Positions 4,444 through 24,714 of a stretch of DNA of 33,024 nucleotides are shown in pieces. The position numbers were made by a program, and so were the translations under genes. Position 1 is the first letter of the stretch. Every line of letters starts with the position of its first letter. The DNA comes from Deltaproteobacteria bacterium RIFOXYD12_FULL_50_9. GTDB lineage: Bacteria > Desulfobacterota > Desulfobulbia > Desulfobulbales > CALZHT01. Under the pieces are notes generated by a model that was not told the origin of the DNA, did not search any database, and was given only the letters and a program-made list of their open reading frames with translations. The stretch covers positions 19,725 through 52,748 of the forward strand of contig MGTA01000167.1 of assembly GCA_001799225.1 (NCBI GenBank), read 5' to 3'.

Positions 4444-4514
4444 TAGTGTAAGATGAGTTTTTAAACGATATAGTATTATTTATTTTTTGATCCAAACCGT
4501 ATGGAGAGTGGATT

Positions 4515-4712
4515 ATGCCGAAGATGAAGACCAACAGGGGTGCTGCTAAGCGTTTTAAAATGACCGGCACTGGAAAGATTAAGAGGAGTAAGGCTTTTTC
4601 CAGCCATATTCTCACCAAAAAATCGACCAAAAGAAAACGGAACCTGCGTAAATCCGCTTTGGTTGAGTCAGCAAATTTAAAGAGTGTAAAAAGACTGGTT
4701 CCCTATCTGTAA
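4515..4712 (+). CDS. rpmI: 50S ribosomal protein L35
   Basis: 65 aa, [24 protein letters not shown]..., highly basic. GGAGAG lies 6 nt upstream. It sits in the canonical infC-rpmI-rplT position. Confidence 0.95.
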
Positions 4713-4860
4713 GAGTGTGTGTCTTGCCATTAGATTAGTGTATTAAGTCGTATACGATGATGCCAGGATCAGTAAACATTATTCAGAACGTTCAGCAGAC
4801 GATGAAGAGATTCATAACAGGTTTGCTGCATTGATGATTTGTTAGAGAGGAGATATTGAG

Positions 4861-5205
4861 ATGCCTAGAGTTACGCGTGGTTTTAAAGCCCGTCGAAGAA
4901 GAAACAAGATACTCAACATGGCCAAAGGCTATATAGGCGGCCGTAGTCGTCTTTTTAAGACCGCTGCCGAGGCGGTTGATCGTGCGTTGGTATATGCCTA
5001 TCGTGATCGCCGAACCAAAAAGCGTGATTTTAGAAGGCTTTGGATCGTCCGGATAGCTGCTGCTGCCAAAATGAATGGAACGTCATACAGTAAATTGATA
5101 GGTGGATTGAAGAAAGCTAAAGTTGATCTTGACAGAAAGGTCTTGTCTAATATGGCTATTCTTGATCCGCAGGCTTTTACCGCAATCGTTAAATTAGCCT
5201 CCTGA
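4861..5205 (+). CDS. rplT: 50S ribosomal protein L20
   Basis: 114 aa, [24 protein letters not shown]...[29 protein letters not shown] lies upstream. Confidence 0.95.
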
Positions 5206-5233
5206 ATTCTTCTGCGCCTGTCACTATTCCGCC

Positions 5234-6247
5234 ATGGAAGAAGAATTACTGCGGCTGCAATCAGAGGCGAAAACCGAACTCTCTACTATTATCCGCCCGG
5301 ATGAACTTGAGTCTTTCAGGGTTAAATATTTAGGGAGGAAATGTACTCTTACTATGCTGATGCGGAAACTTGGCGAGGTTTCCGCGCAGGATCGTCCTCG
5401 GCTTGGTAATCTGGCGAACAGCATTAAAAAAGAGATAGAGGCTGATTTCCTTGAAAAGGAGATGGCCTTGACTCAACTGCAGGCCACCGGAAAAGGAGAG
5501 TCCAGAAAAGATTTAACTCTTCCGGGGCGGGTGATTCCTTTTGGACGTCGTCATCCGGTCTCTCAGGTTATGCTTGAGATCTGCCGTATTTTTGAAGGAC
5601 TCGGTTTTGCAGTGGCTGAAGGGTCCGATGTCGAAACAGATTATTATAATTTCGAGGCCTTGAATATCCCCAAGCATCATCCTGCCAGGGATATGCACGA
5701 CACCTTTTATTTTGATGAGAGCGTCTTGCTGAGGACGCATACCTCCCCCATGCAGATCAGGGCCATGGAGAAACAGGAGCCGCCTCTTCGTATTATTGCT
5801 CCCGGCAAGGTGTACCGCTGCGATTCCGATATCACTCATACCCCGATGTTTCATCAAGTTGAAGGATTTCTTGTTGACCGGCATGTCTCATTTGCTGATC
5901 TTAAGGGGGTTCTTTCTATTTTTATTGCCAAGATGTTTGATAGTAATGTTGCTATCCGTTTTCGTCCGAGTTTCTTTCCTTTTACTGAACCTAGTGCTGA
6001 AGTTGATATAGCCTGTGTGATATGTGATGGAAAGGGGTGTCGTGTTTGTAAACAAACTGGCTGGATTGAGATTCTTGGGGCAGGTCTTATTGATCCCGAG
6101 GTGTTTAGAATGGTTGGTTATGACTCCGAGAAGTTCAGTGGGTTTGCCTTTGGCATTGGGGCTGAGAGAATCGCCATGCTTAAATACGGAATCAATGATA
6201 TCCGTCTTTATTACGAAAATGACATGCGTTTTCTTTCGCAGTTCTGA
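5234..6247 (+). CDS. pheS: Phenylalanine--tRNA ligase alpha subunit
   Basis: 337 aa. It has an N-terminal coiled-coil and class II motifs (HPARDMHDTFY, FRPSFFPFTEPSAEVD, GFAFGIGAERIAML). Confidence 0.97.
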   Translation: MEEELLRLQSEAKTELSTIIRPDELESFRVKYLGRKCTLTMLMRKLGEVSAQDRPRLGNLANSIKKEIEADFLEKEMALTQLQATGKGESRKDLTLPGRVIPFGRRHPVSQVMLEICRIFEGLGFAVAEGSDVETDYYNFEALNIPKHHPARDMHDTFYFDESVLLRTHTSPMQIRAMEKQEPPLRIIAPGKVYRCDSDITHTPMFHQVEGFLVDRHVSFADLKGVLSIFIAKMFDSNVAIRFRPSFFPFTEPSAEVDIACVICDGKGCRVCKQTGWIEILGAGLIDPEVFRMVGYDSEKFSGFAFGIGAERIAMLKYGINDIRLYYENDMRFLSQF

Positions 6248-6315
6248 TAGCAGGTTGTTTTTTGCCGTATTATATTTTCGGCATTTTTTTAATGATTTAA
6301 AAAGCGGATTGACTC

Positions 6316-8739
6316 ATGAAATGCACCCTATCCTGGTTACGTAATTATATAGAGTGTGATCTCCCGACTGCCAAGTTGGTGCAAGGTCTGGTCATGGCTG
6401 GGCTTGAGGTTGATTCATGTCAGGAACTTTTTGAATATTTGAATGACAGCGTCAGGATAGTCAGAATTAAATCTGTTCGTCCGCATCCGCAGGCCGATCG
6501 TCTGGTATTATGTGATGTGGATGCCGGAGGCGAGAGAGTTCTCAGGATCGTCTGCGGGGCTCCTAATGCCAGACCTGGCCTGTTGACTGTGCTGGCCTTA
6601 CCGGGCACATCGTTACCGAATGGCGTAATTATCAAACAGAGCAAGATCCGTGGGGAGATTTCCGAGGGCATGCTTTGTTCGGAAAAAGATCTTGGGATTT
6701 CTGAAAATAATGCCGGGATTATAGACCTGCCAGACTCTTATGCGGTTGGCGAGCCTTTAGTTGATGCTCTTGATTTGCATGATACCTTGCTGGAAGTGGA
6801 TATTACTCCCAATCGACCTGATTGTGCCAGTGTTATTGGTATTGCACGGGAGATTGCCGGTTTTGCCGGGAAAAAACTGCGGGTTCCGGTTGCCCAGAAT
6901 CTTCCAGCCCTCACTGGCCAAAATCTGCCATTTTCAGTGGCGGTTGATTCTGCTGCCTGTCCTCGCTATTCCGCACGTCTTCTTAATGATGTAACTATAG
7001 CGCCTTCGCCGTGGTGGCTTAAGAAAATCCTGTTGGCTGTCGGCCTTCGTCCGATCAATAATGTTGTTGATATTACGAATTTCGTGATGCTTGAATTCGG
7101 TCAGCCTCTACATGCTTTTGATTTCGATCGTTTGGCCGGTGCTGGAATTATTGTCCGGCAGGCCCGACCATTAGAGAAGATCAATACCCTTGACGGCGTT
7201 GCACGGCAACTCGATCCGGAGATGCTGGTTATCTGTGATCATGAAAAACCTGTAGCTGTTGCTGGGATCATGGGCGGGTCAAGTTCTGAGGTGACTGCCT
7301 CCACCAAGCGGATTCTGCTTGAAAGCGCCTACTTTGATCCAGTCAGTATTCGTCGCACGGTCCGCAAGCTTAATATGAGTACTGATTCATCATACCGTTT
7401 TGAAAGGGGGGTTGATCCTGAGGGTATTCCAAAGGCCTTGGAGCGGGCGGTTCAGCTAATCGTTGAGTTAACCGGCGCTAAGCTTGTTGATGACGGTATT
7501 GATCTTATTCAAGGATTACCGGAAAAGAAGGTTATAAAGCTTAGGGTGCAGAGAGTCAGTGATCTCCTTGGAATCAATATCAGTGCCGAGGAGATCGAAC
7601 GTTTGCTGTTAGGTATTGAGATTATTGCTAGGCAGATTGATGAGTTGACTTTTGAAGTTGTGCCGCCGACTTTCAGGGTAGATCTTGAGCGCGAAATTGA
7701 TTTGATTGAAGAGATTGCCAGACTCAAGGGATATAATGAGTTGCCAAGCACCCTCCCCGTGACTCCTATGAGTTTTCCGGAGAATTGTCCTGTTCGTTCT
7801 CTTCGGGATAAGATAGCCGCCACCATGGTTGCCTTAGGTTTTTATGAGGCCATCAATTATAGTTTCGTCAGCGATCACAATGTTGATCTATTGGGGCTTG
7901 CTGTTCAAGACAAACGCCGACAGCAATTACGGCTTAAAAATCCGTTGGCTGAAGATCAGAATGTCATGAGGACCACTCTTCTACCGGCTTTGCTTGAAAA
8001 TGTTCGGCGCAACATCAACCATCAGACTTCCGATTTGCAACTTTTTGAGGTTGGCAAGGTGTTCCTCCCGCAGGGCGGAGAACTGCCTGAAGAGGATGAA
8101 CGTCTGACCGTTGTAATGTGTGGTAGACGCTATCCGGGTGCCCCCGTACTTCACTATTCGGCTAATGCCGTGGTCGATATCCATGATATCCGTGGGGTTG
8201 TTGAAACCATTTTGCTCCAACAGGCATGTGCTGGCGTAATATTCGACACCGATAGCGTCGATGAACAGTTGGGCGAAGCTGGCGAGTCAGTCGTATTAAG
8301 AGCTAATGGTCGGATGTTGGGCGGCTATGGACTGGTAGCTCGAAATATTCTTAAGAATTTTGGCATAAAACAGGATGTCTATTTTATAGATTTAAGCATC
8401 TCTTTATTGAGCCTGATTCCTCCCGAACCCAAAACATTTCGTCCATTATCGAGATATCCATCCGTCACATGGGATGTTGCCTTGGTTGTGCCGGAGGCCA
8501 TCAAATGCGGTGAGCTTTTACAGGCTGTGCATGAAGCTAAAGAAGTGTTGTTCGAGAAGGTTGAACTTTTTGATATCTATCAGGGAAATAATATTGATAA
8601 AGGCACTAAAAGTGTAGCATTGTCAATTACTTATCGTTCAGCTGATCATACATTGGAAGATGATGAAGTTGAAATAACACATAAAAAAATAATCAACTTG
8701 CTTATCTCACGGTTTCAGGGCAAGTTGCGAGAGGTGTGA
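6316..8739 (+). CDS. pheT: Phenylalanine--tRNA ligase beta subunit
   Basis: 807 aa with the MKCTLSWLRNYI start. It has an OB-type tRNA-binding domain (VRIKSVRPHPQADRLVLCDVD), B3_4 and B5 regions, and a C-terminal FDX-ACB-like domain. Confidence 0.97.
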   Translation: MKCTLSWLRNYIECDLPTAKLVQGLVMAGLEVDSCQELFEYLNDSVRIVRIKSVRPHPQADRLVLCDVDAGGERVLRIVCGAPNARPGLLTVLALPGTSLPNGVIIKQSKIRGEISEGMLCSEKDLGISENNAGIIDLPDSYAVGEPLVDALDLHDTLLEVDITPNRPDCASVIGIAREIAGFAGKKLRVPVAQNLPALTGQNLPFSVAVDSAACPRYSARLLNDVTIAPSPWWLKKILLAVGLRPINNVVDITNFVMLEFGQPLHAFDFDRLAGAGIIVRQARPLEKINTLDGVARQLDPEMLVICDHEKPVAVAGIMGGSSSEVTASTKRILLESAYFDPVSIRRTVRKLNMSTDSSYRFERGVDPEGIPKALERAVQLIVELTGAKLVDDGIDLIQGLPEKKVIKLRVQRVSDLLGINISAEEIERLLLGIEIIARQIDELTFEVVPPTFRVDLEREIDLIEEIARLKGYNELPSTLPVTPMSFPENCPVRSLRDKIAATMVALGFYEAINYSFVSDHNVDLLGLAVQDKRRQQLRLKNPLAEDQNVMRTTLLPALLENVRRNINHQTSDLQLFEVGKVFLPQGGELPEEDERLTVVMCGRRYPGAPVLHYSANAVVDIHDIRGVVETILLQQACAGVIFDTDSVDEQLGEAGESVVLRANGRMLGGYGLVARNILKNFGIKQDVYFIDLSISLLSLIPPEPKTFRPLSRYPSVTWDVALVVPEAIKCGELLQAVHEAKEVLFEKVELFDIYQGNNIDKGTKSVALSITYRSADHTLEDDEVEITHKKIINLLISRFQGKLREV

Positions 8740-12254: not shown

Positions 12255-14018
12255 ATGACAACATTTGTCGAAATTGGTGTCTGCAAAGAGATAGTCCAAG
12301 CACTTGATAAACTAGGGTTTTTAATCCCAACACCGGTCCAGGAACAGATAATCCCTTTGTTGTTGAAGAAGCAGGAAGATGTGGTCGGCCTGGCTCAGAC
12401 CGGTACCGGTAAGACAGCTGCCTTTGGTATTCCGCTTATTCAAACAATTGATATGAGTCGCAAACAGACCCAGGCCTTGGTTTTGTGCCCGACTCGGGAG
12501 TTGTGCGTTCAAGTAGCCAAGGATATGACGGAGTATGGTAGTTTTGTTTCAGGGTTGAAGATATTGGCTGTTTATGGCGGCGCCAGCATAATTAAACAGA
12601 TTCAGGAATTGCGTCATGGAGTGCAGATAATCGTTGCGACTCCTGGTCGTCTTCATGATCTGATCCGGCAACGTTATGTCGATATCTCGGCGATTAGGGC
12701 CGTGGTTCTTGATGAGGCCGATGAGATGTTGAACATGGGATTTCAGGAAGAGTTGAACGCCATTTTGGCTAAAACTCCGGCTGAGAAGAGGACTCTCTTG
12801 TTTTCAGCTACGATGCCCCGGGAAGTTGCTGCTATTGCCAATAATTATATGAATGACCCTTTGGAAGTTACTGTTGGCGAACGAAATGCCAGTGCCGAAA
12901 ATATTCGTCATATCTACTACACGGTTCATGCCAAGGATCGCTACCTGGCATTGAAGCGCATTGTTGATATGAATCCGGATGTTTATGCCATCATTTTTTG
13001 TCGAACACGGCAAGAAACCCAGGATGTTGCTGATAAGCTCGTGCAGGATGGTTACAATTCCGACGCACTGCATGGTGATTTGTCCCAGAGTCAACGCGAT
13101 CATGTGATGAAAAGATTCAGGTCCAAAAATCTTCAGATGCTTGTGGCCACCGACGTTGCGGCTCGTGGTCTTGATGTTAAGGATATCACCCATGTGATCC
13201 ATTATAATCTTCCTGATGAGGCCTCAATTTATTTACACCGGAGTGGACGAACCGGCAGGGCCGGTAAGACCGGGATTTCGGTCGCCATCATCAATATGCG
13301 TGAAAAACATACGATTAGGGAGATTGAAAAGAAGCTCAAAAAACAGTTTGAGCGGGGCAAAATTCCAACAGGGCAGCAAATTTGTGAAAAGCAATTGTTA
13401 AGCCGTATCGATTCGTGGCTTGCGATAGATATCAATCATGCTCGGATTGATCCATTTTTGCCGCTAATCGTTAAAAAAATGGAAGGACTTGACCGCGAAG
13501 CACTGATCAAGCTGTTTGTTTCTGTGGAGTTTAGCCGTTTTCTTGAGTATTACCGAGATGCACCTGATCTTAACATTCAAGAAACAGATAAGAGCCGGAC
13601 AGCTTTTAAGGAAAACGACGGCAAATTTCAACGGCAATCGAATTATCAGAAGTACACCAAGTTCATTCTTAGCGTTGGTAAAAAAGATGGGATCAACCCT
13701 GCCCGTCTGATTGCTGAGATTAACAGTGCGACAGTTGATACCCCCAAAATCGCGATTGGCAAGATTGAGATCATGGGTAGTTCCTCAATGATCGAGGTGG
13801 ACGGTAAGTTTACGCCGAAGATTTTGGATATCTTTAAACATGTGAGAATTAATGGTAAACCGGTTAACGTCAGAGTCGATGAGGGAAATATTTCCAAAAA
13901 GACGTCTAATCGTGGTGGTGGGCATTTTGCCGGCAGTAGTGTTCCGAAAAATCGTGAATCCATCGTCAGAAAAAAGTGGAAAAGTAAGGAAAAGACCTCC
14001 CCCAGGCAGTATGTTTGA
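12255..14018 (+). CDS. deaD: DEAD-box ATP-dependent RNA helicase, DeaD/CsdA-like
   Basis: 587 aa. Motifs: Q motif (F..TPVQ), AQTGTGKT, PTRELC, DEAD (VLDEADEM), SAT, HGDLSQSQR and HRSGRTGRAG. The C-terminus has a DbpA-type RNA-binding domain (FILSVGKKDGINPARLIAEI) and a basic tail. Confidence 0.92.
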   Translation: MTTFVEIGVCKEIVQALDKLGFLIPTPVQEQIIPLLLKKQEDVVGLAQTGTGKTAAFGIPLIQTIDMSRKQTQALVLCPTRELCVQVAKDMTEYGSFVSGLKILAVYGGASIIKQIQELRHGVQIIVATPGRLHDLIRQRYVDISAIRAVVLDEADEMLNMGFQEELNAILAKTPAEKRTLLFSATMPREVAAIANNYMNDPLEVTVGERNASAENIRHIYYTVHAKDRYLALKRIVDMNPDVYAIIFCRTRQETQDVADKLVQDGYNSDALHGDLSQSQRDHVMKRFRSKNLQMLVATDVAARGLDVKDITHVIHYNLPDEASIYLHRSGRTGRAGKTGISVAIINMREKHTIREIEKKLKKQFERGKIPTGQQICEKQLLSRIDSWLAIDINHARIDPFLPLIVKKMEGLDREALIKLFVSVEFSRFLEYYRDAPDLNIQETDKSRTAFKENDGKFQRQSNYQKYTKFILSVGKKDGINPARLIAEINSATVDTPKIAIGKIEIMGSSSMIEVDGKFTPKILDIFKHVRINGKPVNVRVDEGNISKKTSNRGGGHFAGSSVPKNRESIVRKKWKSKEKTSPRQYV

Positions 14019-14047
14019 GAGAAGATTCTAATTTTATATTTTTATCT

Positions 14048-14076
14048 CCTTTGCAGCTCTCTCCGGGCTGCAAAGG
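14048..14076 (+). terminator. Stem-loop after the helicase gene (terminator candidate, no adjacent U-tract)
   Basis: CCTTTGCAGC (14048-14057) pairs perfectly with GCTGCAAAGG (14067-14076) around a 9-nt loop. The nearest T-run lies about 20 nt downstream. Confidence 0.45.
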
Positions 14077-14118
14077 AAGTATAACTTCGAGTTTTTCATG
14101 ATCAAGTAACGCTTTTCG

Positions 14119-14147
14119 TTGACTCGAAAATTAGCATTTGTTATATC
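14119..14147 (+). promoter_or_regulatory. Sigma70-type promoter candidate for the MgtE_N/CBS-NRAMP operon leader
   Basis: TTGACT (14119-14124), a 17-nt spacer ending in TGT, then TATATC (14142-14147). This would give a leader of roughly 295 nt before the ATG at 14449. Confidence 0.4.
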
Positions 14148-14243
14148 AATCCGAATAGTAATAATAAGCGTTTGACGATGGCATATTGCTACTTGTTGAT
14201 TAAGACGTTTTTTTAGACTACCCCCTTCAATTTGGAGTAACAC

Positions 14244-14339
14244 ATGGACGAAGGTCCTAGTCCGAGTAAATGTTGTGACAGGCCCTTTGCTGCGCAAGGC
14301 TTATGTCTGGCATGTCGGCCATGTGTGGCTTACATGTAG
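14244..14339 (+). CDS. Candidate leader sORF, 31 codons: MDEGPSPSKCCDRPFAAQGLCLACRPCVAYM
   Basis: ATG at 14244 lies 6 nt after GGAG (14234-14237), and TAG is at 14337-14339. It is below the ORF-track size cutoff. It has 5 Cys (all TGT) and 4 Pro. There is no homology evidence. Confidence 0.3.
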   Translation: MDEGPSPSKCCDRPFAAQGLCLACRPCVAYM

Positions 14340-14344
14340 TTTTT
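14311..14344 (+). promoter_or_regulatory. Terminator-like hairpin overlapping the sORF 3' end (possible attenuator)
   Basis: CATGT-C-GGCCA (14311-14321) pairs with TGGCT-T-ACATG (26-36), with one mismatch, one G-T pair and a TGTG loop. The sequence TAG TTTTT (14337-14344) follows, so the sORF stop codon sits between the stem and the T-run. Confidence 0.35.
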
Positions 14345-14448
14345 CCTGCCTGACAGCTCACCTGCCTGCCCAGGGCCTTTTGGTGTATCTTAGCCATTAT
14401 CCGTAAAATTTTTTAAACCGGTTGGCATTAATCATCAGGAGGTTCGCA

Positions 14449-15750
14449 ATGGATCAAACCAATGCCCAGATCAATTCCTCTGAACAGCATCAACCCCACA
14501 CCTTTTTCTTTGCCTCGACATATCTGGGTAAAGAACTGACGGCAAATGGCGAATCAGTCGGTCGGATCAAGGACCTTGTAGCCCATCGCGGCACAAGTAT
14601 TTATCCACAGCTTGATGGCGCAATCGTCCGCAAGCAGGGAAAAGATTATTTTTTGCCGGCGGAAAAGATCATCTTCCCCAGCACCTCAGCGCTTAAAAAG
14701 TTCGAGTTGGTTTCTGCTGAGCTTGCCGAGTATTCTCCTGAGAAACAGCAGTTTTTCCTCCGCGATGTTTTTATGGACAAACAGATAGTCGACATGCAGG
14801 GTGCCAAAGTAGAAAGGGTAAATGATGTTCAGTTGATGACGGTTAATAACAAATCCTATCTGGTTCATGTTGATGTCGGACTTCCCGGACTTTTACGGCG
14901 TCTTGGTTTTGAAGGCCAGGTGCGCGGTTTGACCAGATTGTTTGGTAAAGATCTTAAAGAGGATTTGATCTCCTGGCGTTATGTGCAGCCCCTTGAGGCT
15001 GGTCATGGCACAGTTCCTGTCCGGCTTATGGTTGATCATCAAGCATTAAAAGGACTGCATCCTGCTGATCTTGCTGAGATTCTTGAAGATCTGAATAAAG
15101 GGGATCGTGTCGCACTGCTCCATACTGTAGATACTGAGACAGCAGCAAACGCCCTGGAGATGGTCGAGCCTGAACTAGGTGCTGCGATCGTCCAGGATCT
15201 TGATCCTACCAGAGCCGCAGAGATCTTTGAGGAGATGGAACCTTCAGTAGCTGCAGATATCTTTGAAGAGTTACCCGAGATGCACCAGGAGGTCATCATG
15301 GGACAGATGGAGCCTGAGGAGCGTGACGAAATCGGGTTGCTCCAGGCCTTTGAAGAGAGAACGGCAGGCTCTCTGATGACCACTGATTTTCTGCAGATAT
15401 GTATTACAAAAACCGTTGGCGATGCCCTTAAGTTCATTCGCGACAATGCTGATGAGGTGGAAATAGTTCATTATGTCTATGTCGGTGACGACTATGGCCA
15501 TCTGATTGGTGTTGTAAGCATAAAGCAGCTTATTCTGGCAGCGCCGGAGGTCTTGTTGCACGACCTTGAGATGCCCAGGTTGATCACGGTCGAGACGGAT
15601 GATGAACTGGAAAAGGTGGCTGATCAGTTTTATAAATATAAATTTCTAGCCATACCAGTGGTGGACGACAAAACAAGGTTGCTTGGCATTATCAGTTACA
15701 AGCACAGCTTTGATGAACTGGTCTCCTACTATTATCGGGAAGCGGCGTAA
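14449..15750 (+). CDS. Soluble MgtE_N + tandem CBS domain protein (MgtE cytoplasmic sensor module without the membrane domain)
   Basis: ATG at 14449 lies 6 nt after AGGAGG; the track start TTG 14422 is rejected. MgtE_N-like helical repeats are acidic: LHPADLAEILEDLNKGDRVALL...RAAEIFEEMEPSVAADIFEELP. A CBS pair follows: GSLMTTDFLQI...LIGVVSIKQLI and FLAIPVVDDKTRLLGIIS. A roughly 130-aa N-terminal extension may be PRC-barrel-like. The protein ends without any hydrophobic TM region. Confidence 0.87.
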   Translation: MDQTNAQINSSEQHQPHTFFFASTYLGKELTANGESVGRIKDLVAHRGTSIYPQLDGAIVRKQGKDYFLPAEKIIFPSTSALKKFELVSAELAEYSPEKQQFFLRDVFMDKQIVDMQGAKVERVNDVQLMTVNNKSYLVHVDVGLPGLLRRLGFEGQVRGLTRLFGKDLKEDLISWRYVQPLEAGHGTVPVRLMVDHQALKGLHPADLAEILEDLNKGDRVALLHTVDTETAANALEMVEPELGAAIVQDLDPTRAAEIFEEMEPSVAADIFEELPEMHQEVIMGQMEPEERDEIGLLQAFEERTAGSLMTTDFLQICITKTVGDALKFIRDNADEVEIVHYVYVGDDYGHLIGVVSIKQLILAAPEVLLHDLEMPRLITVETDDELEKVADQFYKYKFLAIPVVDDKTRLLGIISYKHSFDELVSYYYREAA

Positions 15751-15753
15751 CTG

Positions 15754-16992
15754 ATGGCTGAGACAAAAAAAAGTTTTAGACTGCGGTTTCTGCTGTTTTT
15801 GAGCATCATGGGACCCGGGATTATTACCGCCAATGTCGATAATGACGCAGGCGGAATTGCGACATACAGCCAGGCCGGCGCCTTGTATGGTTTCGATGTA
15901 TTATGGATATTTATCCCCATGACCGTGGTCCTGGTTCTTGTCCAGGAGATGGCAAATCGTATGGGGGTGGTCACCGGCGATGGTTTGTCCTCCCTTATCC
16001 GAGAGCGGTTTGGCGTAAAAATCACCTTTTATCTTATGCTGGCCCTGCTGGTCACCAACTTCGGCAATATTATGGCCGAGTTTGCCGGAATAGCTTCTGC
16101 CGCCGAACTGTTCGGCATCCCGCGTATTATTGCCGTACCGATCTGTGCCTTTTTGGTTTGGTACATGGTATTGCGCTGGAGTTACCGATCGGTGGAAAAG
16201 ATTTTTTTACTCGGTTGTTTTTTTTATGTGGCTTATCTGCTTTCCGCTTTCATGGCCAAGCCGGACATGGGTGAGATCGCTATTGCCCTGGTAACACCGA
16301 AACTGATCGCCACCAAGGATTACATGTTCATGCTGATCGGTATTGTCGGTACGACAATTGCGCCGTGGATGCAGTTTTATCAGCAGGCAAGCATTGTTGA
16401 GAAGGGGATAGATATTGAAGACTACAGCTATTCCCGCTCCGACACCATCCTGGGTGGTATTACCGTAAGTATTGTCGCCATGTGCATTGTAGTGGTCTGC
16501 GCCATGACCCTGCATCGCAGCGGGATCAGCATTGAGGATGCCTCGCAGGCGGCGCAGGCCCTAGCTCCTCTGGCCGGTCTGCAGGCCAGTAAACTTTTTG
16601 CTTTTGGGTTGTGGAATGCCTCAATGTTCGCGGCCTGTATATTGCCACTCTCTACTGCTTATTCGATCTGCGAGGCTCTTGGTTGGGAGCGCGGTGTTGA
16701 TCAGCGCTATGAGGATGCAAAGCAATTTTATGTTCTCTATACAACCTCGATCATCCTTGGTGCTTTGATTGTCCTGATCCCCGGCCTCTCCTTGATGAAC
16801 GTAATGCTCATCTCCCAGATCGTTAATGGTTTTCTCTTTACGGTCATTCTCGTTTTCATGCTCATCCTGGTGAATGATGAAAAACTGATGGGGAAGTATA
16901 CCAACAGCCGGTTTTATAATGCGGTCTGCTTCGCAACCGTTGTCGTTTTAGCGCTAATTTCGGTTGTTTCGTTGTTTTCATTGGTTCTGTAA
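15754..16992 (+). CDS. NRAMP-family transporter with NRMT-type (Mg2+-like) binding-site residues
   Basis: 412 aa and polytopic. ATG lies 3 nt after the upstream TAA. The TM1 motif reads D31-A-G-G34 where canonical NRAMPs have DPGN. TM6 reads T200-T-I-A203-P-W-M where canonical NRAMPs have A-x-x-M-P-H-N. Confidence 0.9.
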   Translation: MAETKKSFRLRFLLFLSIMGPGIITANVDNDAGGIATYSQAGALYGFDVLWIFIPMTVVLVLVQEMANRMGVVTGDGLSSLIRERFGVKITFYLMLALLVTNFGNIMAEFAGIASAAELFGIPRIIAVPICAFLVWYMVLRWSYRSVEKIFLLGCFFYVAYLLSAFMAKPDMGEIAIALVTPKLIATKDYMFMLIGIVGTTIAPWMQFYQQASIVEKGIDIEDYSYSRSDTILGGITVSIVAMCIVVVCAMTLHRSGISIEDASQAAQALAPLAGLQASKLFAFGLWNASMFAACILPLSTAYSICEALGWERGVDQRYEDAKQFYVLYTTSIILGALIVLIPGLSLMNVMLISQIVNGFLFTVILVFMLILVNDEKLMGKYTNSRFYNAVCFATVVVLALISVVSLFSLVL

Positions 16993-17073: not shown

Positions 17074-17943
17074 CTATTTGATCCTGTCGAATCGTATCTG
17101 GGTGATTTGCTCTGATATAAGTCCCATCATGAATATGATGATGGAAGTGGTCAACAGCAGGGCCGACATATTCGAAAAACGGTGGGAAGTTATGAAGGTG
17201 TAAAGATAGTAGAGTATTCCGGTACTGAAGAAGAAAAAACTGATTGGCAGAAAAATCCGGAGAGGGGAGAAAAGTGTAGCGATTTTTGTGATAATCAGAA
17301 AGAAGCGAGGGCCATCCTCCAGCAATTTTATTTTGCTTTTGCCGCCTCTTTTTATTGTTTGAATAGGAACAAACTTTATGCTTCTGCCACTACGAAGATA
17401 AGATATGGTTAAGGTCGATGGGTATGAAAAAGTATTTGGCAGAAGGTAAATATAGTCCAGAACGGTCTCTTTTTTAACAAGACGAAAACCGGAGGTTAGA
17501 TCGTCAATTTTGAATTTTGTAACGTAGCCGGCCAGCCAGTTATACAATGTATTAGCAATATCACGATGAACTGATGTCTCGGATTGCCTGGTCCTGGCGC
17601 CTATTACCATATCGAATTTATCTTTGTGCTCAAGCAGCCTGGCGATGTCTGCCGGGTTATGCTGACCATCGGCATCCATCATGATGACCCAATCGCCGGA
17701 AGCGCAGCGCAGACCGGTTTTAATGGCCGCGCCATTTCCAATATTGTACGGGTGTGGCCAGACATTGGCGCCGGCGGCCATGGCTATTTGAATAGTGTTA
17801 TCAGTTGAGGCGTCATCGACCACAAGAATCTCGAAGTCAGGGTAAAGGGCTTTGAGATTTTTAATAGTTCCACCGATGTTTTCCGCCTCGTTAAAAGCTG
17901 GCAGGAGGATGGTGATTTTTTCGAAGTTCTCTTGAGTTGTCAT
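17074..17943 (-). CDS. GT2 polyprenyl-phosphate glycosyltransferase (GtrB/ArnC/DPM1-like)
   Basis: 289 aa. The N-terminus is ILLPAFNEAENI...ILVVDDASTDNT, with the DxD segment MMDADGQHNP. It has two C-terminal hydrophobic helices (FFLIITKIATLFSPLRIFLPISFFFF and LLLTTSIIIFMMGLI). Confidence 0.88.
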   Translation of the reverse strand: MTTQENFEKITILLPAFNEAENIGGTIKNLKALYPDFEILVVDDASTDNTIQIAMAAGANVWPHPYNIGNGAAIKTGLRCASGDWVIMMDADGQHNPADIARLLEHKDKFDMVIGARTRQSETSVHRDIANTLYNWLAGYVTKFKIDDLTSGFRLVKKETVLDYIYLLPNTFSYPSTLTISYLRSGRSIKFVPIQTIKRGGKSKIKLLEDGPRFFLIITKIATLFSPLRIFLPISFFFFSTGILYYLYTFITSHRFSNMSALLLTTSIIIFMMGLISEQITQIRFDRIK

Positions 17944-18016
17944 GATTATGTTCCAAACGAGTTGATTGGCAAATTAGTTAGTGCTGTGACAGTTAGCTTT
18001 ATGTGTGGAATGTGTG

Positions 18017-20131
18017 TCAGTTCTTGTTTTTATCCCTCAGTTCACAAAGATCGGCATAAAGCTGTTTCATTTGTTGGTCGTCCGGTACAGTATCTAAATA
18101 TTTTTTACATATTTTTATGGCGATGGGTAGAAGTTCAGGAGAGTCGGTTTTTAAGCAATAATCAACATATATTTGTGCTATCATTTTAATTGCATCGTGA
18201 TTGTTACGATCTTGATCAAGAATAATCGAACACTCCTTTGCCGCATTATATAAGTAGCCATTTTGATAAAAATTTTCTGCCTTTTTTAGCCTTTCTTCCG
18301 TACTTTCTGTTTGTTCAGGTAAAGTTTTTGGGAGTTTTTTGTGTTGGCGTAAATCATATATGGTAATGACTCGCTTAAATTTTGGGAATAGCCGACTGTA
18401 TATTACCGGCCCTGGTTGCGGGAGAACAATACCACCAAAGGCCAGATCAAAAAGTAGTGGGCGGGCGATTGCAAGTTCAGTACTGTCGGCAAGCAACAGA
18501 TCGCCTTCATGGTTATCGATTTTTTGTCTTAACTCCTCGTAAGTTTTCGGTAGACTGATCGCTTTTCCCTTTAGGTAGTAAGCCATATATGGCTTATAAC
18601 TTATGACCTTTACACCTGGGAAAGCCAATTGCCGATCCTGCAAATATTTAGCGACTTCAAGTTGGCCGGCGGAAAATATTAAAGAAGGTTTGGCTGAAAG
18701 CAGATTTATTTTTTGAATCGTAGGCCATTCCTGAGAAAATATTATGCCAACCATCATCAATGGAACAATAATTGGACTTGCGATTGTTTTAGATAGTGTT
18801 TTTGACTTGATTTTGCCATCAAATATTTTTTTAGCCCAATCCCAACTCTGGCAAATTCCTTGTCCGCAAAGTATTAAGGCGGGAAGAAGAATAGGAAACA
18901 TATAGCGATGGTCTACCATATACGCCGACACTAACGCATAGAGGATAATAATAGATATAATCCAGCTAAGCAGATATAATTCTTTCCAATAATCCCTCCA
19001 AGAACCGATATGAATTTGATAGACAACAAAGATTAGGGCCAGTGAGAGCCAACCAAGTGAGGAGTAGCCGACTCCTTCGAGAAAAGCTTTAAAGTATGAC
19101 CAGCCGTTTGTTGCCAGTTTACTGCTGATAAATGAAAGCTTCTCTAATGGACTCTGGCTTTGAATTGTTGTTACGTTCGTCTCTGCGCCCGGGAGTTTGA
19201 AACGGTCGTATTGGTCACCGCCTTCATGAAAAATAGCAGTTACAATTTTGGCATTATTCGCTTGGTAAGTTAACCCCCACTCGCCGGTGCGGAGTTTGAT
19301 GGCCATAAGGTGGGGCATAACAGTAAGCATAAAAGTACAGAGCATTAATGCCACCAGCATAATGGAGCGTCGGTAGGTGGAATTTTCTCTCAACAGAACA
19401 AAAGTGCTCCATATAAATACTAAGCAAATGGCGACAATACCTATTTCACGGGTGAGGTAGCTGAGCGCGGCACATATTCCTGTCAAAATAAAGAGGAATG
19501 GTCTTTTTGTATTTATGGCCCATAGTCCTGCTGCTATGGTACTGAACAAAAGAAACGTAAATGTTGATTCGGTAAGCGCTGGAGATGCCCATTGGAGGGC
19601 AAACGGGTGAAAAGAAAAGAGGGCAATAGCAATCAGGCCTGAAGTCTGTGAATAGAGATGACGTCCGACCAGATAGAGGGGAATAAAGGTAAGCATACTC
19701 ATCGAGAGCGAGACCCATATCCCGATTCGTTCTATCTCAAACGGTAAAAAAGAAAATGCTGCTATTAACATCGGGTAGAATGGTGGAAGGCGTCGCGAGG
19801 TTAAAAAGCCGGCATCCAGATCATAGTCACTTTGGAAATATGTTGAAGTCTGTATCTCTTTGGCCAGACTGAAATACAGTGTTGAATCTGGAAAGGTAAT
19901 TAGAGGGTCCCATCTGGTAGTCGAGACCCGAAGAAAGAAGCCGATCGCTAAAATAGCAAGAAATAATAGGATTGGCAGGTTTTTTGAATTATGAATCTGT
20001 TCAAACATATGACTCGTCTTTGTGTATAGAGGACACTGTTGATCGTTAGAAACCTGACTTGCAGGGTAAAAACAGGTTGATAAAACAAGAAAAATGGCTA
20101 ACCACTCGAAAGAAAAACGAAAGATGATCAA
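18017..20131 (-). CDS. GT-C glycosyltransferase, PMT_2/ArnT-like, with a C-terminal TPR-like tail
   Basis: About 470 aa of polytopic membrane domain, with first-loop FPDSTLYFSLAKEI and RRLPPFYPMLIAAF typical of family 39/83-like enzymes. A soluble domain and a TPR-like end follow (AENFYQNGYLYNAAKECSIIL...). The start is ambiguous: TTG at 20131 (track) or ATG at 20008 (MFEQIHNSKN...). Confidence 0.78.
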   Translation of the reverse strand: MIIFRFSFEWLAIFLVLSTCFYPASQVSNDQQCPLYTKTSHMFEQIHNSKNLPILLFLAILAIGFFLRVSTTRWDPLITFPDSTLYFSLAKEIQTSTYFQSDYDLDAGFLTSRRLPPFYPMLIAAFSFLPFEIERIGIWVSLSMSMLTFIPLYLVGRHLYSQTSGLIAIALFSFHPFALQWASPALTESTFTFLLFSTIAAGLWAINTKRPFLFILTGICAALSYLTREIGIVAICLVFIWSTFVLLRENSTYRRSIMLVALMLCTFMLTVMPHLMAIKLRTGEWGLTYQANNAKIVTAIFHEGGDQYDRFKLPGAETNVTTIQSQSPLEKLSFISSKLATNGWSYFKAFLEGVGYSSLGWLSLALIFVVYQIHIGSWRDYWKELYLLSWIISIIILYALVSAYMVDHRYMFPILLPALILCGQGICQSWDWAKKIFDGKIKSKTLSKTIASPIIVPLMMVGIIFSQEWPTIQKINLLSAKPSLIFSAGQLEVAKYLQDRQLAFPGVKVISYKPYMAYYLKGKAISLPKTYEELRQKIDNHEGDLLLADSTELAIARPLLFDLAFGGIVLPQPGPVIYSRLFPKFKRVITIYDLRQHKKLPKTLPEQTESTEERLKKAENFYQNGYLYNAAKECSIILDQDRNNHDAIKMIAQIYVDYCLKTDSPELLPIAIKICKKYLDTVPDDQQMKQLYADLCELRDKNKN

Positions 20132-20173
20132 ATCTAGAAGGAATCTCTTTGGAAGTCAAAGCAAAAATCATGA

Positions 20174-22300
20174 TTACCGCCAGGTGTCTCCTCCAACTTC
20201 CCATATCTGATAGTTTGGCGTGCTTTGCAACACAGGTTTAAAATATTCAGGGGGCATTGGAGTTTTTAGCCAGAATAGATTGTTAAAGAGACGCTGCCCG
20301 GAGTCTCTGCTTAAAAGTAGTGCCATATTTTGCTCAGAAAAGATATCGAACTCATAACTGCCGGCGGAATTTTCAAGTTGAACAGGGTGAGGGGGATAAT
20401 CATACCGAGAAATTTTTTCGGTGGTTCTAAACAGTGCCGAGGTGATGGGAGTTGGCGCTCCTGAGAGATTGACAACTCCGGTTTGGAGGTCGGCATGCAT
20501 GGTTCCACTCTTGTTTGTTACATTTAAACCTTTAATAATAATATTTTTGAACAGCTTGCCTGGCAGTGGCGAGACTCCGGTTTGCTTATTGATATCCCAG
20601 GTACCTAAGAAGACGATCCAGTGATTTACCTGCATTAGTCCCCAATCCAGAAAAAGATATACAGGCCTGGAACGGGGCGGAAAAAGAAAGGTAAGCCACC
20701 CCCCAGCCGGCATGTTTGCCTGAGACAAGTTAAACTTTTTAAGAATTATGGAAGCTTCCTGCGGACCGGCAGCCATGATTCTTTTCAGGAGTTCGTAGCC
20801 GGTGGCGCGATCTTTGCCAACGGACTGATAAAATAGATTTATTCCCGGCGTGCCATGTCTGACATAAAATTGAATGAAGTTAGCGGCCAGACGCGGATTT
20901 TCAGTGGCTAATGGCATTGAGTTGTAAACAGACTGTTCGCCGCTATGTGTTTGTCCGTCGCAAGTTGTTCCTCGATTTCCCCAGTAACTTAGAGGATAGC
21001 CATTGTCACAAAAAGTCCAGACAATCGCACCAGCAGGAGTGACCCGTTGCAGTTGCGACATGCCGGCGATGCTCGCCCCTGGGAAGGGCATGGCGAATGC
21101 AGCCTCCCCCTTGTACGAGGTCCAGGAAGCATAGATAATCAGGCCGGGAATAATAAGGTACTTTGTTTTGCGGAGGCTGACGGGTCTGCATAGTTCGACC
21201 ATAAAGAAACCAAAACCAAGTGCAATCACTGGTGTGATAAAGATCATAAACCTATCTGCAGCAAAAGCCAGCAGGGCCAGGAGAATTGGCATGATGAGAA
21301 ATAAGCTCTGCTTTGAGTGACGTGCGAAAAGCAAAATTAAACCTGTCAGGCTTATTCCGAAGAGAAGCCAGCTGCCGGTGGATCTGGCAACGAACAGAGG
21401 TAGCGATAGGCCCGCCTGTTCGGTAATCACTTTCCCCATGGGCGGGAAATCATCTTTGCCGGGATGGATTATATAGTGATAGTAATTTTGAAATTTATGA
21501 AATACCGAATTTGCTGGATTGAACTCTTGCCATGTCACGGCTATTAAGGAGATGGCGACAACAAACAGGATAAATTTTTTTGCTTCAGGTCCAGGCGGAC
21601 GATAGAAATAGACCAGGGCCGTGGTGAATGGCACCAGGAAAATAGCCAATACCACATACGGGGCCTGATCCCACCACCATAAAAACAATATTAGAGTTGC
21701 TACCGCAGAGATCAGATAGTAATAACGTTTCCGGCCGGTTTCAGTTGCAAATTTAAGTAAGAAGAAGACAATTGCCATTAAAAGGGTGGGATTCAGGCAG
21801 TCGGTATCATATTGACCAAAAGAACTCCTGGCAAGGTGGGCATTAGAGATAAGACTAAAAGCCGCAGCCGTAAGTCCCATGATAGTTCCACCCCATAATT
21901 TGCCAAGACAATACGAAGGAATAGCAAGCATTACACCTAATACGGCTGGAAGAACAACCGCAACCCAGTTTAACGAAAAGGAACTTGCCCTGGAGATAGC
22001 AGCGGTCATCACAGAGAGCAAAGGCGGTGGAAAAGGTCGAGGTGGGTTGGCAGGTACGGAACGGAGTTCGTCAACGGTATTATAGCGATTGTTAACGAGA
22101 TCCTGAGCAAGACGCAGGTAATAATAGCCATCGCCGGTAGCAATTAAAGGTTCTTCGTTATGAAATGCCTCTGAGGCGTTGGTGCGCCAATCCTTTAGGT
22201 CATCCAGGCGTATTACCAGACCCCAAAGAATAATTATACCAAGGGCTAAAGCTTTTAGGAGTCTTTGATGTGCAGGATTGTCAGTCAAGGGCATTGCCAA
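20174..22300 (-). CDS. STT3/PglB-family oligosaccharyltransferase homologue with a non-canonical WWDYG region
   Basis: 708 aa. It aligns by eye to Campylobacter lari PglB. ATGDGYYYLRLAQD matches TNDGYAFAEGARD. RSSFGQYDTDCLN matches RTMSGYYDTDMLV. VITEQ matches the TIxE motif. IVWTFCDNGYPLSYWGNRGTTCDGQTH matches [26 protein letters not shown]. The start is TTG 22300 or ATG 22294. Confidence 0.85.
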   Translation of the reverse strand: MAMPLTDNPAHQRLLKALALGIIILWGLVIRLDDLKDWRTNASEAFHNEEPLIATGDGYYYLRLAQDLVNNRYNTVDELRSVPANPPRPFPPPLLSVMTAAISRASSFSLNWVAVVLPAVLGVMLAIPSYCLGKLWGGTIMGLTAAAFSLISNAHLARSSFGQYDTDCLNPTLLMAIVFFLLKFATETGRKRYYYLISAVATLILFLWWWDQAPYVVLAIFLVPFTTALVYFYRPPGPEAKKFILFVVAISLIAVTWQEFNPANSVFHKFQNYYHYIIHPGKDDFPPMGKVITEQAGLSLPLFVARSTGSWLLFGISLTGLILLFARHSKQSLFLIMPILLALLAFAADRFMIFITPVIALGFGFFMVELCRPVSLRKTKYLIIPGLIIYASWTSYKGEAAFAMPFPGASIAGMSQLQRVTPAGAIVWTFCDNGYPLSYWGNRGTTCDGQTHSGEQSVYNSMPLATENPRLAANFIQFYVRHGTPGINLFYQSVGKDRATGYELLKRIMAAGPQEASIILKKFNLSQANMPAGGWLTFLFPPRSRPVYLFLDWGLMQVNHWIVFLGTWDINKQTGVSPLPGKLFKNIIIKGLNVTNKSGTMHADLQTGVVNLSGAPTPITSALFRTTEKISRYDYPPHPVQLENSAGSYEFDIFSEQNMALLLSRDSGQRLFNNLFWLKTPMPPEYFKPVLQSTPNYQIWEVGGDTWR

Positions 22301-22311
22301 AGTTTAGAAAC

Positions 22312-24714
22312 CTATTGTGGGGCATTTATTGTAGCAGGTTTAGTTTTCTCCAGTTCAAATTTATTGTCCGGTTGGATCTTGGCAGTCTTAATAAAATTTT
22401 CATATTCGGCCCAGTCCGGATGACCAGGGTAGTTGGCCAGAAGCCTGCTGAACATGATTGCTGCTTGTTTATTGTTATTTTGTTCCTGGTAACAAAGGCC
22501 GGCCAGTTCAATTAGCGGGAAAAAGTCCAGCGCCGAATTTAAATAGTGTTTTGTCAGTTTTAACGCTTCATCGGTTTGGTTTGTTTTAAGTCGCCAGCGG
22601 GCTAAATAATAACCAGCGACAGGGTCTTGCGGCTCAAGGCGGGCAGCCTCTTTTAGAAAATATTCAATAGACCCTTCTAAAGGGTGGTACGATTTTTCTA
22701 TAAAACCGGCCAGGAAAAGATACGACTTGAACCGGAAGTTGTGTATTGACACTGGCCTGTTTGCAAGATTTACCGCGTTAATCGCCCTTTTGTTTTTTTC
22801 GAGCGCATTTTCTAAATTCCTCTTAATCTCTAACGTTGCTATATCATTCGGATCCTTTTCCAGGGCCATTTTCAGGTATTGTTCAGTATTTCGGTAATCT
22901 CGTTTGGCAAAAAGCGTTCCGGCAATTTTACGATGAACGGCAACCGGTTTATTCTCTAACTCAAGTTGCAGGCGTCCCTTTTCACTGGTCATGGCCTCCA
23001 GCAATAAGGCTTCCATAGCTCCTAAGGCAATTTTTGCGTCAGTGGTGCCCTTAACTAAAGCAGCATATGAAAACGCTTCAAAGGACGCCTGCAAGTTGCC
23101 GAGTTTCCAGTAAGCAGTTCCCAGATTTAACATTATCCTTTGAAAGCCATCCCAATTGATCCCCTTGGGTCTCTCTTTTATATATTTTTCTGCCCGGTCA
23201 GCGGCCTCCTGGAACTTCCCCTGTTCCCTCAAGATGTTTACAATGTTGTTGGCTGCCTTCAGATACTCTTCATAGTTGTTCTTTCCCAGAGCTATTGTTT
23301 GCTCCAGAGTGGCCAGACCCTCTTCATATCGACCTGATATTGCCAATATAACGCCTAAATTGTTCAGCACTCTTGGTTTATTTGGGGATTTTTTGGCACA
23401 ATCCTTCATAAGAGTGTATTCATCCTGCCAAACGGTATTGCGGATAGATGTGAAAGTAGTCAATACGCAAACAATAATTACAGTTCCCAAAAATATTATC
23501 TGCTTTAATTCTATGTCATTTTTTGCTGAAATAAATCGTATACCTATGTCGACCAGCGCGATCATAACAATAAAAAAGCCCAGGGAGGGCAGGTAAAGAC
23601 GATGCTCAAAAACAAGTTCCAGGCCGATAATGGATGATTCCAAAATCAGATTCAGGAAAAAAAACAAAATGCCAAATGATATTAGTTTGTTATGTCGACT
23701 AGCTTTGAAAGCGATCCATAAAAGAGAAGCGATAAACAGCAGTGCGAGAAGGGTGGTCGGGGGTGCCAATAATGAATGAGAAATAGTAAAGTCATGCTCA
23801 AGGTTGAAACGACCTGGCAGCGGAAATATAAGCAGAGAGAGGTAAAAAACGATTACCCGTAGTTCTGTCAACAATCTTTCTGAAATAGTGAAATGCCTGT
23901 TTGAGAAAGTTTCGTAAATCGTCGAGAGATTCGCATAAAGCAAGGGCAAAAGCAATAGAATAACAATGGCCAGACCAAGAAGTTGCTGCCATCTTATTTT
24001 GGCCATGATATTTTTGCCAAGCTCGGGTGAAATAAAAAGCATCTCAACCAATAATAGCGCTAAGGGCAGAGTAAAGGAGTTTTCCTTGGATAAGAAGGCG
24101 CACAGCGCAAAGATGATAAAGCCAACCCAGGCAATATAACGTTGCGGTTTTGAGATATTGATCCGGCCCCAAATATAACAAGTAAGGGCGGCAAAATAGA
24201 ACAGGGCAACCAATGACGCCATTCTTTGCACCAGGTAGGTAACGGCATTTGTCTGCACCGGGTGCACGGCCCACAAGGCGGTAACGAACAGGCTGAAGTA
24301 TTCCGGCGCAATAAACTTCAGAGACCTCTTCGCTATTAAAGTTGAACATAAGGCGCGCATTAAGAGATAAACAGCAGTAGTCGACAGAATATGAATAAGG
24401 ATGTTGGTTAAGTGAAATTGCTTAACACTCCCCTTGCCTATCATGTGATCGATTGCAAAGGTGAGGAGGGGAATTAAACGTCCCAGGCCGAAACGTGTTG
24501 AGGAGAGCTTTTGCAGGGACTCAAGTGAAAAATTATCAATATAAACTTTAGGCTCGTCAATGAAAGTTGCTTTATCATCAAGCACTAGAGGTGAATAAAG
24601 AGTATTGCTGTAACTGAGGCAAATAAAGCAGAGAACAAAAAGGAAAAGTACATGCGGAGATAAAGAAGTAATTCGAACCTGCCAGGAATGGTTTTTATCC
24701 TTTTCTGTCATCAT
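22312..24714 (-). CDS. Polytopic membrane protein with C-terminal TPR repeats, TMTC-like GT-C glycosyltransferase
   Basis: 800 aa. After TM1 comes NTLYSPLVLDDKATFIDEP, resembling the F-x-F/L-DD first-loop motif of TMTC/DUF1736-type GT-Cs. About 10-12 hydrophobic segments run to roughly residue 430, followed by about 350 aa of TPR-like repeats. The family assignment (about 0.6) is less certain than the architecture. Confidence 0.78.
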   Translation of the reverse strand: MMTEKDKNHSWQVRITSLSPHVLFLFVLCFICLSYSNTLYSPLVLDDKATFIDEPKVYIDNFSLESLQKLSSTRFGLGRLIPLLTFAIDHMIGKGSVKQFHLTNILIHILSTTAVYLLMRALCSTLIAKRSLKFIAPEYFSLFVTALWAVHPVQTNAVTYLVQRMASLVALFYFAALTCYIWGRINISKPQRYIAWVGFIIFALCAFLSKENSFTLPLALLLVEMLFISPELGKNIMAKIRWQQLLGLAIVILLLLPLLYANLSTIYETFSNRHFTISERLLTELRVIVFYLSLLIFPLPGRFNLEHDFTISHSLLAPPTTLLALLFIASLLWIAFKASRHNKLISFGILFFFLNLILESSIIGLELVFEHRLYLPSLGFFIVMIALVDIGIRFISAKNDIELKQIIFLGTVIIVCVLTTFTSIRNTVWQDEYTLMKDCAKKSPNKPRVLNNLGVILAISGRYEEGLATLEQTIALGKNNYEEYLKAANNIVNILREQGKFQEAADRAEKYIKERPKGINWDGFQRIMLNLGTAYWKLGNLQASFEAFSYAALVKGTTDAKIALGAMEALLLEAMTSEKGRLQLELENKPVAVHRKIAGTLFAKRDYRNTEQYLKMALEKDPNDIATLEIKRNLENALEKNKRAINAVNLANRPVSIHNFRFKSYLFLAGFIEKSYHPLEGSIEYFLKEAARLEPQDPVAGYYLARWRLKTNQTDEALKLTKHYLNSALDFFPLIELAGLCYQEQNNNKQAAIMFSRLLANYPGHPDWAEYENFIKTAKIQPDNKFELEKTKPATINAPQ

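Follow-up and report, generated by a model that had tools for sequence, protein, structure and literature searches.

NRMTs constitute a fourth class of bacterial Mg2+ importers. MgtE and CorA have built-in cytosolic Mg2+ sensors, whereas NRMTs have none, and an unregulated, uncoupled importer driven by the membrane potential could overload the cell with Mg2+. We describe here an operon located in a 33,024-nucleotide stretch of DNA from Deltaproteobacteria bacterium RIFOXYD12_FULL_50_9 (the whole stretch is referred to below as the window), in which the gene of an NRMT-clade transporter is directly preceded by that of a soluble protein, called the partner in what follows, that is homologous to the cytosolic domain of MgtE and carries an additional N-terminal module.

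Such a pairing is not new, the first report dating from 2014: Shin et al. (2014, PLoS Genet 10:e1004429, PMC4072509), who named NrmT, reported that an MgtE-like gene adjoins the transporter gene in most members of the NrmT group, and that in one operon of Clostridium acetobutylicum this MgtE-like partner is split into two genes. They proposed that it serves in cytoplasmic feedback regulation or as a metal chaperone, while stating that what the partial MgtE gene does 'remains unknown'. The partnership had been presented as uncharacterised and unrecognised in the initial annotation of the window, a claim that has to be withdrawn since the 2014 study contains the pair, the feedback idea and one negative co-expression test. 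Concerning the transporter, work on EleNRMT from Eggerthella lenta established that Thr224 is required for the interaction with Mg2+ and that Mg2+ and Mn2+ are moved without H+ coupling (Ramanadane et al. 2022, eLife 11:e74589); the partner goes unmentioned in that structure paper, and full-text literature searches, which did not cover subscription-only papers, revealed no functional work on it later than that of Shin et al. In MgtE itself, the pore is gated by the cytosolic domain in response to Mg2+ and ATP (Maruyama et al. 2018; Tomita et al. 2017).

The window locus adds a member to this known, uncharacterised pairing. Like the loci of Shin et al. (Ca_c0685/Ca_c3329 and the A. capsulatum locus), it carries a gene for a soluble homologue of the N-terminal cytoplasmic part of MgtE beside an NrmT of the NRAMP outgroup; unlike them, it lacks an M-box, and its partner is a single gene of 433 codons whereas that of Ca_c0685 is split. 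In the passages of their paper that deal with the partner, the latter is termed a small open reading frame (ORF) or a fragment, and we found no mention of a tandem PRC-barrel. New here are the synteny counts in both directions, the tandem PRC-barrel, a residue-level map of the Mg2+ and ATP sites, and the presence of the partner beside a close relative of EleNRMT.

The partner gene (14449..15750, + strand), delineated as an ORF with profile matches and corresponding to the 'MgtE-like fragment' of NrmT loci, encodes a 433-residue soluble protein with the organization PRC-PRC-MgtE_N-CBS-CBS. The MgtE_N helical domain (residues 197-300, 15037..15348, + strand), recognized by Pfam (residues 203-303, E 2.7e-24) and by Foldseek, bears a net charge of -21; it is followed by a pair of CBS domains (residues 306-432, 15364..15744, + strand) identified with Pfam and by alignment with MgtE. 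Pfam found no match to the MgtE membrane domain PF01769 in the partner, and the MgtE profile TIGR00400 scored 149 bits against a cut-off of 232.75, with only positions 26-243 of its 450 covered. Moreover, the strongest hydrophobic 19-mer sits inside the CBS fold and is no membrane helix, and the chain stops where the plug helix of MgtE would start. The description of this protein in the initial annotation (433 residues, soluble, an acidic MgtE_N domain and a CBS pair, no membrane domain) is thus borne out by Pfam, by TIGR00400 and by the charge of -21.

The best PDB sequence match of the partner is the cytosolic domain of Thermus thermophilus MgtE (TtMgtE; E 3.5e-31). In the AlphaFold model (mean pLDDT 86.7), the C-terminal 235 residues correspond to this domain, and the model superimposes on the Mg2+-bound structure of the domain (2yvy) with a target-normalised TM-score of 0.85 and a root-mean-square deviation of 1.9 Å over 231 columns (Foldseek). 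The partner is a pore-less homologue of the MgtE cytosolic domain. It shares with TtMgtE (2yvx/2yvy/5x9g) the fold of the N domain and of the CBS pair, the acidity of the N domain, the residues equivalent to D95 and D250, and the Tyr, Arg/Lys and Phe that contact ATP. By contrast, MgtE has a pore domain of five transmembrane helices (with the pore Asp) and a plug helix, both of which the partner lacks, whereas the partner has an N-terminal addition that is absent from MgtE and is associated with a separate membrane protein of unrelated fold.

The initial annotation had mentioned the N-terminal addition as an extension. The extension is indeed present but it is far from featureless, being a conserved tandem PRC-barrel that had escaped attention. 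As modelled, the first 195 residues comprise a first barrel (residues 18-87, 14500..14709, + strand), detected by Pfam, as a beta-barrel in the AlphaFold2 (AF2) model and with Foldseek, and a second barrel followed by a helical hairpin (residues 101-181, 14749..14991, + strand), recognized from the alignment, the AF2 model and Foldseek. The Pfam PRC-barrel profile PF05239 is marginal in the window partner (21.8 bits for a cut-off of 21.2), and it matches 31 of the 42 members of the partner family, with a best E of 8e-11. Residues 1-196, modelled separately with AF2, gave a pLDDT of 83.6 and a pTM of 0.78. The top PDB fold match of this N-terminal part is the tandem PRC-barrel protein CdpB1/CdpB2 (8qzo, E 1.6e-5, Foldseek), the next ones being RimM, MTH1859, the reaction-centre H subunit and CdvA, all of which are PRC-barrel proteins, as are most of the top matches. 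The partner resembles the tandem PRC proteins (CdpB1/CdpB2, RimM, reaction-centre H subunit) in having two PRC-type barrels in residues 1-195; it differs from them in sequence (10-17% identity) and in its surroundings, since nothing at the window locus is linked to cell division, ribosome maturation or photosynthesis. The fusion of a PRC-barrel to MgtE_N and CBS domains is specific to the partner family.

In CdpB1/CdpB2, RimM and the reaction-centre H subunit, PRC barrels are protein-docking modules. In the 42-member alignment, the most conserved segment of the partner is the second barrel with its hairpin (residues 98-182), whose mean column conservation is 0.70, compared to 0.43-0.63 elsewhere (0.63 for MgtE_N and 0.58 for the CBS pair), and a run of invariant residues, DKQIVD..GAKVERVND...VDVG..G..RRLG, extends from D110 to G153 in barrel 2. 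We infer that the conserved PRC-barrel module, notably barrel 2, is the best candidate for a docking surface on the transporter.

The transporter gene (15754..16992, + strand) encodes a 412-residue NRMT-clade NRAMP, as judged from the ORF and from profile and PDB sequence matches. As a full-length Nramp, the protein matches all 357 positions of PF01566 (1-357, E 2.2e-95), and its best PDB sequence match is EleNRMT (7qia), with 362.7 bits over residues 11-407 and no gap, whereas the canonical NRAMPs scored far lower: at most 95.5 bits for DraNramp, 64.8 for ScaDMT, 41.8 for the rice Al transporter NRAT and about 38 for EcoDMT. The TM1 metal-site motif is D31-A-G-G34 (15844..15855, + strand) in place of the canonical D-P-G-N, and the TM6 motif is T200-T-I-A203-P-W205-M (TTIAPWM, residues 200-206; 16351..16371, + strand), with a Thr for the canonical Ala, an Ala for the Met and a Trp for the His of the proton pathway. 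In the alignment, D31, G34, T200 and A203 correspond to Asp55, Gly58, Thr224 and the Ala at the canonical Met position of EleNRMT, Glu109 and Gln355 match its Glu133 (helix 3) and Gln379 (helix 10), and the residues of the proton pathway are replaced, W205 standing at the position of DraNramp H232, a Gln at that of H237 and I106 at that of D131. Both motifs lie where the initial annotation had placed them, and its assignment of the transporter to the NRMT type is supported by the gap between 362.7 and 95.5 bits and by the identity of the metal-site residues.

By its sequence, the transporter belongs to the NRMT clade of the SLC11 family, the assignment being one by bit-score separation and motif identity in place of a formal tree. 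It resembles EleNRMT (7qia/7qic) in its gap-free length of about 400 residues, in the Asp/Gly/Thr/Ala set, in the Gln of helix 10 and the Glu of helix 3, and in the loss of the proton-pathway histidines; unlike EleNRMT, which was studied alone, it comes from a metagenome-assembled genome (MAG) of an uncultured deltaproteobacterium and is known as a sequence. Its homology to EleNRMT predicts that hydrated Mg2+ and Mn2+ are transported without proton coupling, and the operon would most likely serve the uptake of divalent cations, of Mg2+ with Mn2+ also accepted. Note the caution of Shin et al. (2014, PMC4072509) that high-affinity Mg2+ transport is found in just some members of the NrmT group.

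The gene pairing, put forward in the initial annotation from this single locus, recurs in other genomes whichever gene is taken as the starting point. On the partner side, we surveyed 80 loci, one genome per species, from many phyla, 77 of which were informative: in 73 of these, an NRMT-clade gene lies downstream on the same strand. The pairs are found in Desulfobacterota, Myxococcota, Nitrospirota, Chloroflexota, Eremiobacterota, Armatimonadota and others. Among the seven other partner loci, three end less than 300 nucleotides (nt) from the partner gene and in one (L007) the sequence stops after a helicase gene; only two, L058 and L060, contain a clear solo copy of the partner. On the transporter side, we surveyed 80 metagenomic NRMT loci, 56 of which include at least 1.4 kb of upstream sequence. 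The partner is present in 50 of the 56, directly upstream and on the same strand in 46 of the 50, which leaves about 10% of these NRMT loci without a partner; among shorter loci, 14 of 16 contain a C-terminal fragment of it. Two NRMT loci (L117 and L139) have the partner homologue downstream of the transporter gene on the opposite strand, i.e. in a convergent arrangement.

The two genes are, in addition, tightly joined. In the window, the junction reads TAA-CTG-ATG (15748..15756, + strand): the stop codon of the partner (15748-15750) is separated by a CTG spacer from the transporter ATG at 15754, in agreement with the 3-nt distance given by the initial annotation between the partner and the 412-residue NRAMP. 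Elsewhere, a candidate NRMT start overlaps the partner stop (-4) in 32 of 70 adjacent pairs and lies within 9 nt of it in most others, so that candidate starts overlap or nearly abut in about three quarters of the pairs. The same layout is found next to a close relative of EleNRMT: in Eggerthellaceae contigs (L161, positions 2645-5416; also L162 and L163), a 450-residue PRC+MgtE_N+CBS protein, which shares 32% identity with the window partner along its whole length, is encoded by a gene that ends 3 nt before the ATG of a transporter 92% identical to EleNRMT, the spacing being that of the window. The same partner is expected in E. lenta itself. Since gene order, strand and abutting junctions are kept across distant phyla, a direct functional link between partner and transporter is very likely. 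That co-transcription is all that the two genes have in common and that their products act independently, the partner regulating for instance another target or Mg2+ system, is very improbable in view of this conservation in both search directions, the solo partner homologues and the NRMT loci devoid of partner notwithstanding.

The two solo genes (L058, positions 1710-2981, in a Chthonomonadales MAG; L060, positions 3977-5245, in Ca. Magnetominusculus, where it is followed by an SMC gene) have no NRMT gene within 4 kb. Their PRC+MgtE_N+CBS products are 33-37% identical homologues and end in a basic tail (RRRKLPQ... and KRKRKKI) that is missing from the NRMT-linked proteins; the two may belong to a separate subfamily that acts on another target.

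All 69 aligned full-length partner-linked transporters have D-[AV]-[GST]-G in TM1, and all but one, the apparently damaged L077, have T-x-x-[ATS]-P-[WY] in TM6. Among the partner-linked transporters of loci L001-L080, the TM6 subtypes defined at the canonical Met position are T-x-x-A-P-W-M (17 loci), which is the exact form of the window transporter and of EleNRMT, T-x-x-T-P-Y-M (23 loci), T-x-x-T-P-W-G (15 loci) and T-x-x-S-P-Y-M (4 loci). Judging from these motifs, the subtypes may differ in metal specificity. In a Nitrospirota group of partner-linked transporters, TM1 contains DASG or DATG, and the Glu of TM3 and the Gln of TM10 are lost.

We then mapped onto the partner the TtMgtE residues that, when mutated, leave the channel unable to close in response to Mg2+ (Maruyama et al. 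2018), using the 42-member family alignment. Two of the six acidic residues are kept in the window partner: D95 (site Mg6) corresponds to D270, which is invariant in the family, and D250 (Mg5) to D422, an Asp in 38 of the 42 members. The four others are replaced by non-acidic residues, namely E59 (Mg7) by N234, D91 (Mg4) by S266, D226 (Mg5) by K398 and D247 (Mg4) by H419. The position of N234 is acidic in 37 members and that of H419 is a His in 36, while those of S266 and K398 are never acidic. Note that the Mg2+ sites are known to vary between MgtE orthologues (PMC10200709). As for the residues that contact ATP in MgtE (Tomita et al. 2017), Y170 corresponds to Y342, invariant in the family, R187 to K359 (an Arg in 38 members and basic in 41) and F227 to F399 (kept in 41); these three positions rank with the best conserved of the family, above most Mg2+-site residues. 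Conversely, D188 and N203, which hydrogen-bond the ribose and adenine in MgtE, are not conserved among the 42 members. The partner sequence is compatible with a cation- and/or nucleotide-responsive switch, without proving one, and its role as a Mg2+ sensor is plausible but unproven.

In the mechanism that we favour, the partner would be docked by its PRC-barrel module to the cytoplasmic side of the transporter. Binding of cytosolic Mg2+ would alter the conformation of the acidic MgtE_N/CBS part, an adenine nucleotide in the CBS site probably tuning the response, and this change would restrain transport under Mg2+-replete conditions. A gate would be needed because NRMT is an electrogenic, uncoupled importer; the partner would provide in trans the feedback control that is present in cis in MgtE and CorA. 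The tight junction of the genes, with its 3-nt spacer in the window and overlaps of 4 nt in other loci, would help the two proteins to be made together. We hold this mechanism as a whole, i.e. PRC docking combined with a Mg2+/nucleotide switch restraining an NRMT in trans, with moderate confidence; docking, ligand binding and inhibition are what we infer.

Several observations weigh against it. The plug helix, which is the signal transmitter in MgtE, is absent. Two solo copies of the partner exist, and four of the six Mg2+-site residues are non-acidic in the window partner. The M-box (ykoK) Mg2+ riboswitch, taken by Shin et al. as a sign of specificity for Mg2+, is absent from the window leader and from the 17 related loci scanned (16 and the EleNRMT-like locus), although an upstream M-box is an indicator and no strict requirement for an NRMT. 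EleNRMT functions alone in liposomes (Ramanadane et al. 2022), and NrmT transporters complement without the partner (Shin et al. 2014, PMC4072509). According to the same study, the A. capsulatum partner-linked transporter behaved as a Mn2+ importer, and Mg2+ rescue was no better when the A. capsulatum pair was co-expressed; this last result counts only weakly, because no improvement would be expected from an inhibitory subunit. Of the two-protein Mg2+ system with a sensor in trans proposed by the initial annotation, the functional pairing is supported by synteny, whereas 'Mg2+ sensor' was an overstatement, in view of the site residues, the lack of an M-box and the A. capsulatum Mn2+ importer.

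Alternatively, the partner could mainly be a sensor of adenine nucleotides (of energy or of Mg-ATP) that couples NRMT to the ATP status of the cell through its CBS pair. CBS pairs commonly bind adenosine ligands, many of the Foldseek matches are nucleotide-bound CBS proteins, and the conservation of Y342, R/K359 and F399 surpasses that of most Mg2+-site residues. Yet the ribose- and adenine-bonding residues are not conserved, and the charge of -21 of MgtE_N, together with D270, which is invariant, and the conserved D422, still points to the binding of cations. Furthermore, ATP modulates Mg2+ sensing in MgtE and does not replace it (Tomita et al. 2017). We consider a mainly nucleotide-sensing partner unlikely.

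Improbable, too, is a role of the partner as an assembly, stability or localisation factor in which the PRC-barrels act as a scaffold, as in archaeal CdpB or the reaction-centre H subunit, with no regulation by a ligand. It would account for the PRC-barrel block being the most conserved segment, its nearest structural matches are PRC proteins of the scaffold type, and the tight gene junction would keep the production of the two proteins linked. It is, however, at odds with the fact that NRMTs are expressed and work alone in B. subtilis, E. coli and liposomes, and it leaves unexplained a complete MgtE_N/CBS module with conserved ligand-site residues. Slightly less probable still is a cytosolic metal chaperone or sink that would take Mg2+ or Mn2+ at the transporter exit without gating. 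This role, which is among those proposed by Shin et al. (2014), would fit the highly acidic surface of the partner and the association of the A. capsulatum pair with Mn2+ transport, but it has no obvious purpose for cytosolic Mg2+, which is millimolar and free; the fold of the partner is that of a conformational switch; and no Cys/His-rich transition-metal site is evident besides the conserved H419.

Returning to the mechanism of a PRC-docked Mg2+/nucleotide switch, a more far-reaching version of it can be envisaged, which we advance tentatively and with some doubt: the tandem PRC-barrel would be a dedicated adaptor by which an MgtE-type Mg2+/ATP switch gates a LeuT-fold carrier in trans, so that a portable sensor would be common to two unrelated Mg2+ uptake systems, and the partner would be the missing subunit of EleNRMT. 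If so, a sensor can pass, as a subunit of its own, from one transporter fold to an unrelated one, and the structural and functional studies of EleNRMT covered half of the native system. A minor point concerns public labels: 'Mn transporter' is doubtful for the transporter, while among those given to the partner, which also include 'CBS domain-containing protein', 'hypothetical protein' is uninformative and 'magnesium transporter' wrong. The window partner is 100% identical to the hypothetical protein A2511_08120 of Deltaproteobacteria bacterium RIFOXYD12_FULL_50_9, and the transporter is 100% identical to the entry from the same MAG that GenBank labels 'Mn transporter'.

Regarding the expression signals of the operon, a Shine-Dalgarno sequence, AGGAGG (14437..14442, + strand), was read 6 nt 5' of the partner ATG at 14449; an in-frame TTG at 14422 is an alternative start that we judged less likely. 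A Shine-Dalgarno-like sequence, GGGAAG (15737-15742), lies within the 3' end of the partner ORF and could be the ribosome-binding site of the transporter gene. The two ORFs are in one shared reading frame, with only TAA CTG between them. Fusion by read-through of the stop codon was rejected as a general feature since the candidate -4 overlaps found in 32 of the 70 related pairs imply different frames; the common frame of the window ORFs is probably incidental.

The operon is preceded by a 430-nt leader (14019..14448, + strand) that separates it from a DEAD-box helicase gene. Rfam scans of positions 13900-14600, at the gathering threshold and at E up to 10, detected no M-box or other Rfam riboswitch; a weak match to a PyrR site on the opposite strand of the leader (30 bits for a cut-off of 54) was dismissed. 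Promoter and terminator scans gave only background-level matches. The leader contains a strong hairpin with a perfect 13-bp stem (14047-14077) just after the stop codon of the helicase gene, and its folding energy has a z of -2.9 relative to shuffled controls, i.e. it is somewhat more stably folded than these; we ascribe no function to this structure.

The operon is surrounded by an ordinary chromosome. On its 5' side are found the genes of ThrRS, of the alpha and beta subunits of PheRS, of a sigma-54 response regulator and, directly 5' of the operon (12255-14018), of the DEAD-box helicase, which has a DbpA RNA-binding domain; on its 3' side lie, on the opposite strand, the CysRS gene and a glycosyltransferase cluster, and the window includes four tRNA genes. 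In three MAG loci (L004, positions 5924-7246, L005 and L008), a 40%-identical helicase gene and a small IS200-like ORF are inserted between the partner and NRMT genes, and in L007 a helicase homologue lies 3' of the partner gene, the locus ending after it. A functional link between the operon and the DEAD-box/DbpA helicase was not retained, as the association occurs in only 4 of 160 loci; we treat it as local synteny. Finally, the cluster that converges with the NRMT operon (17074-24714, - strand) encodes a family-2 glycosyltransferase, a PMT_2 membrane glycosyltransferase, a 708-residue STT3/PglB-like oligosaccharyltransferase and an 800-residue TPR protein, and is a putative protein N-glycosylation locus.

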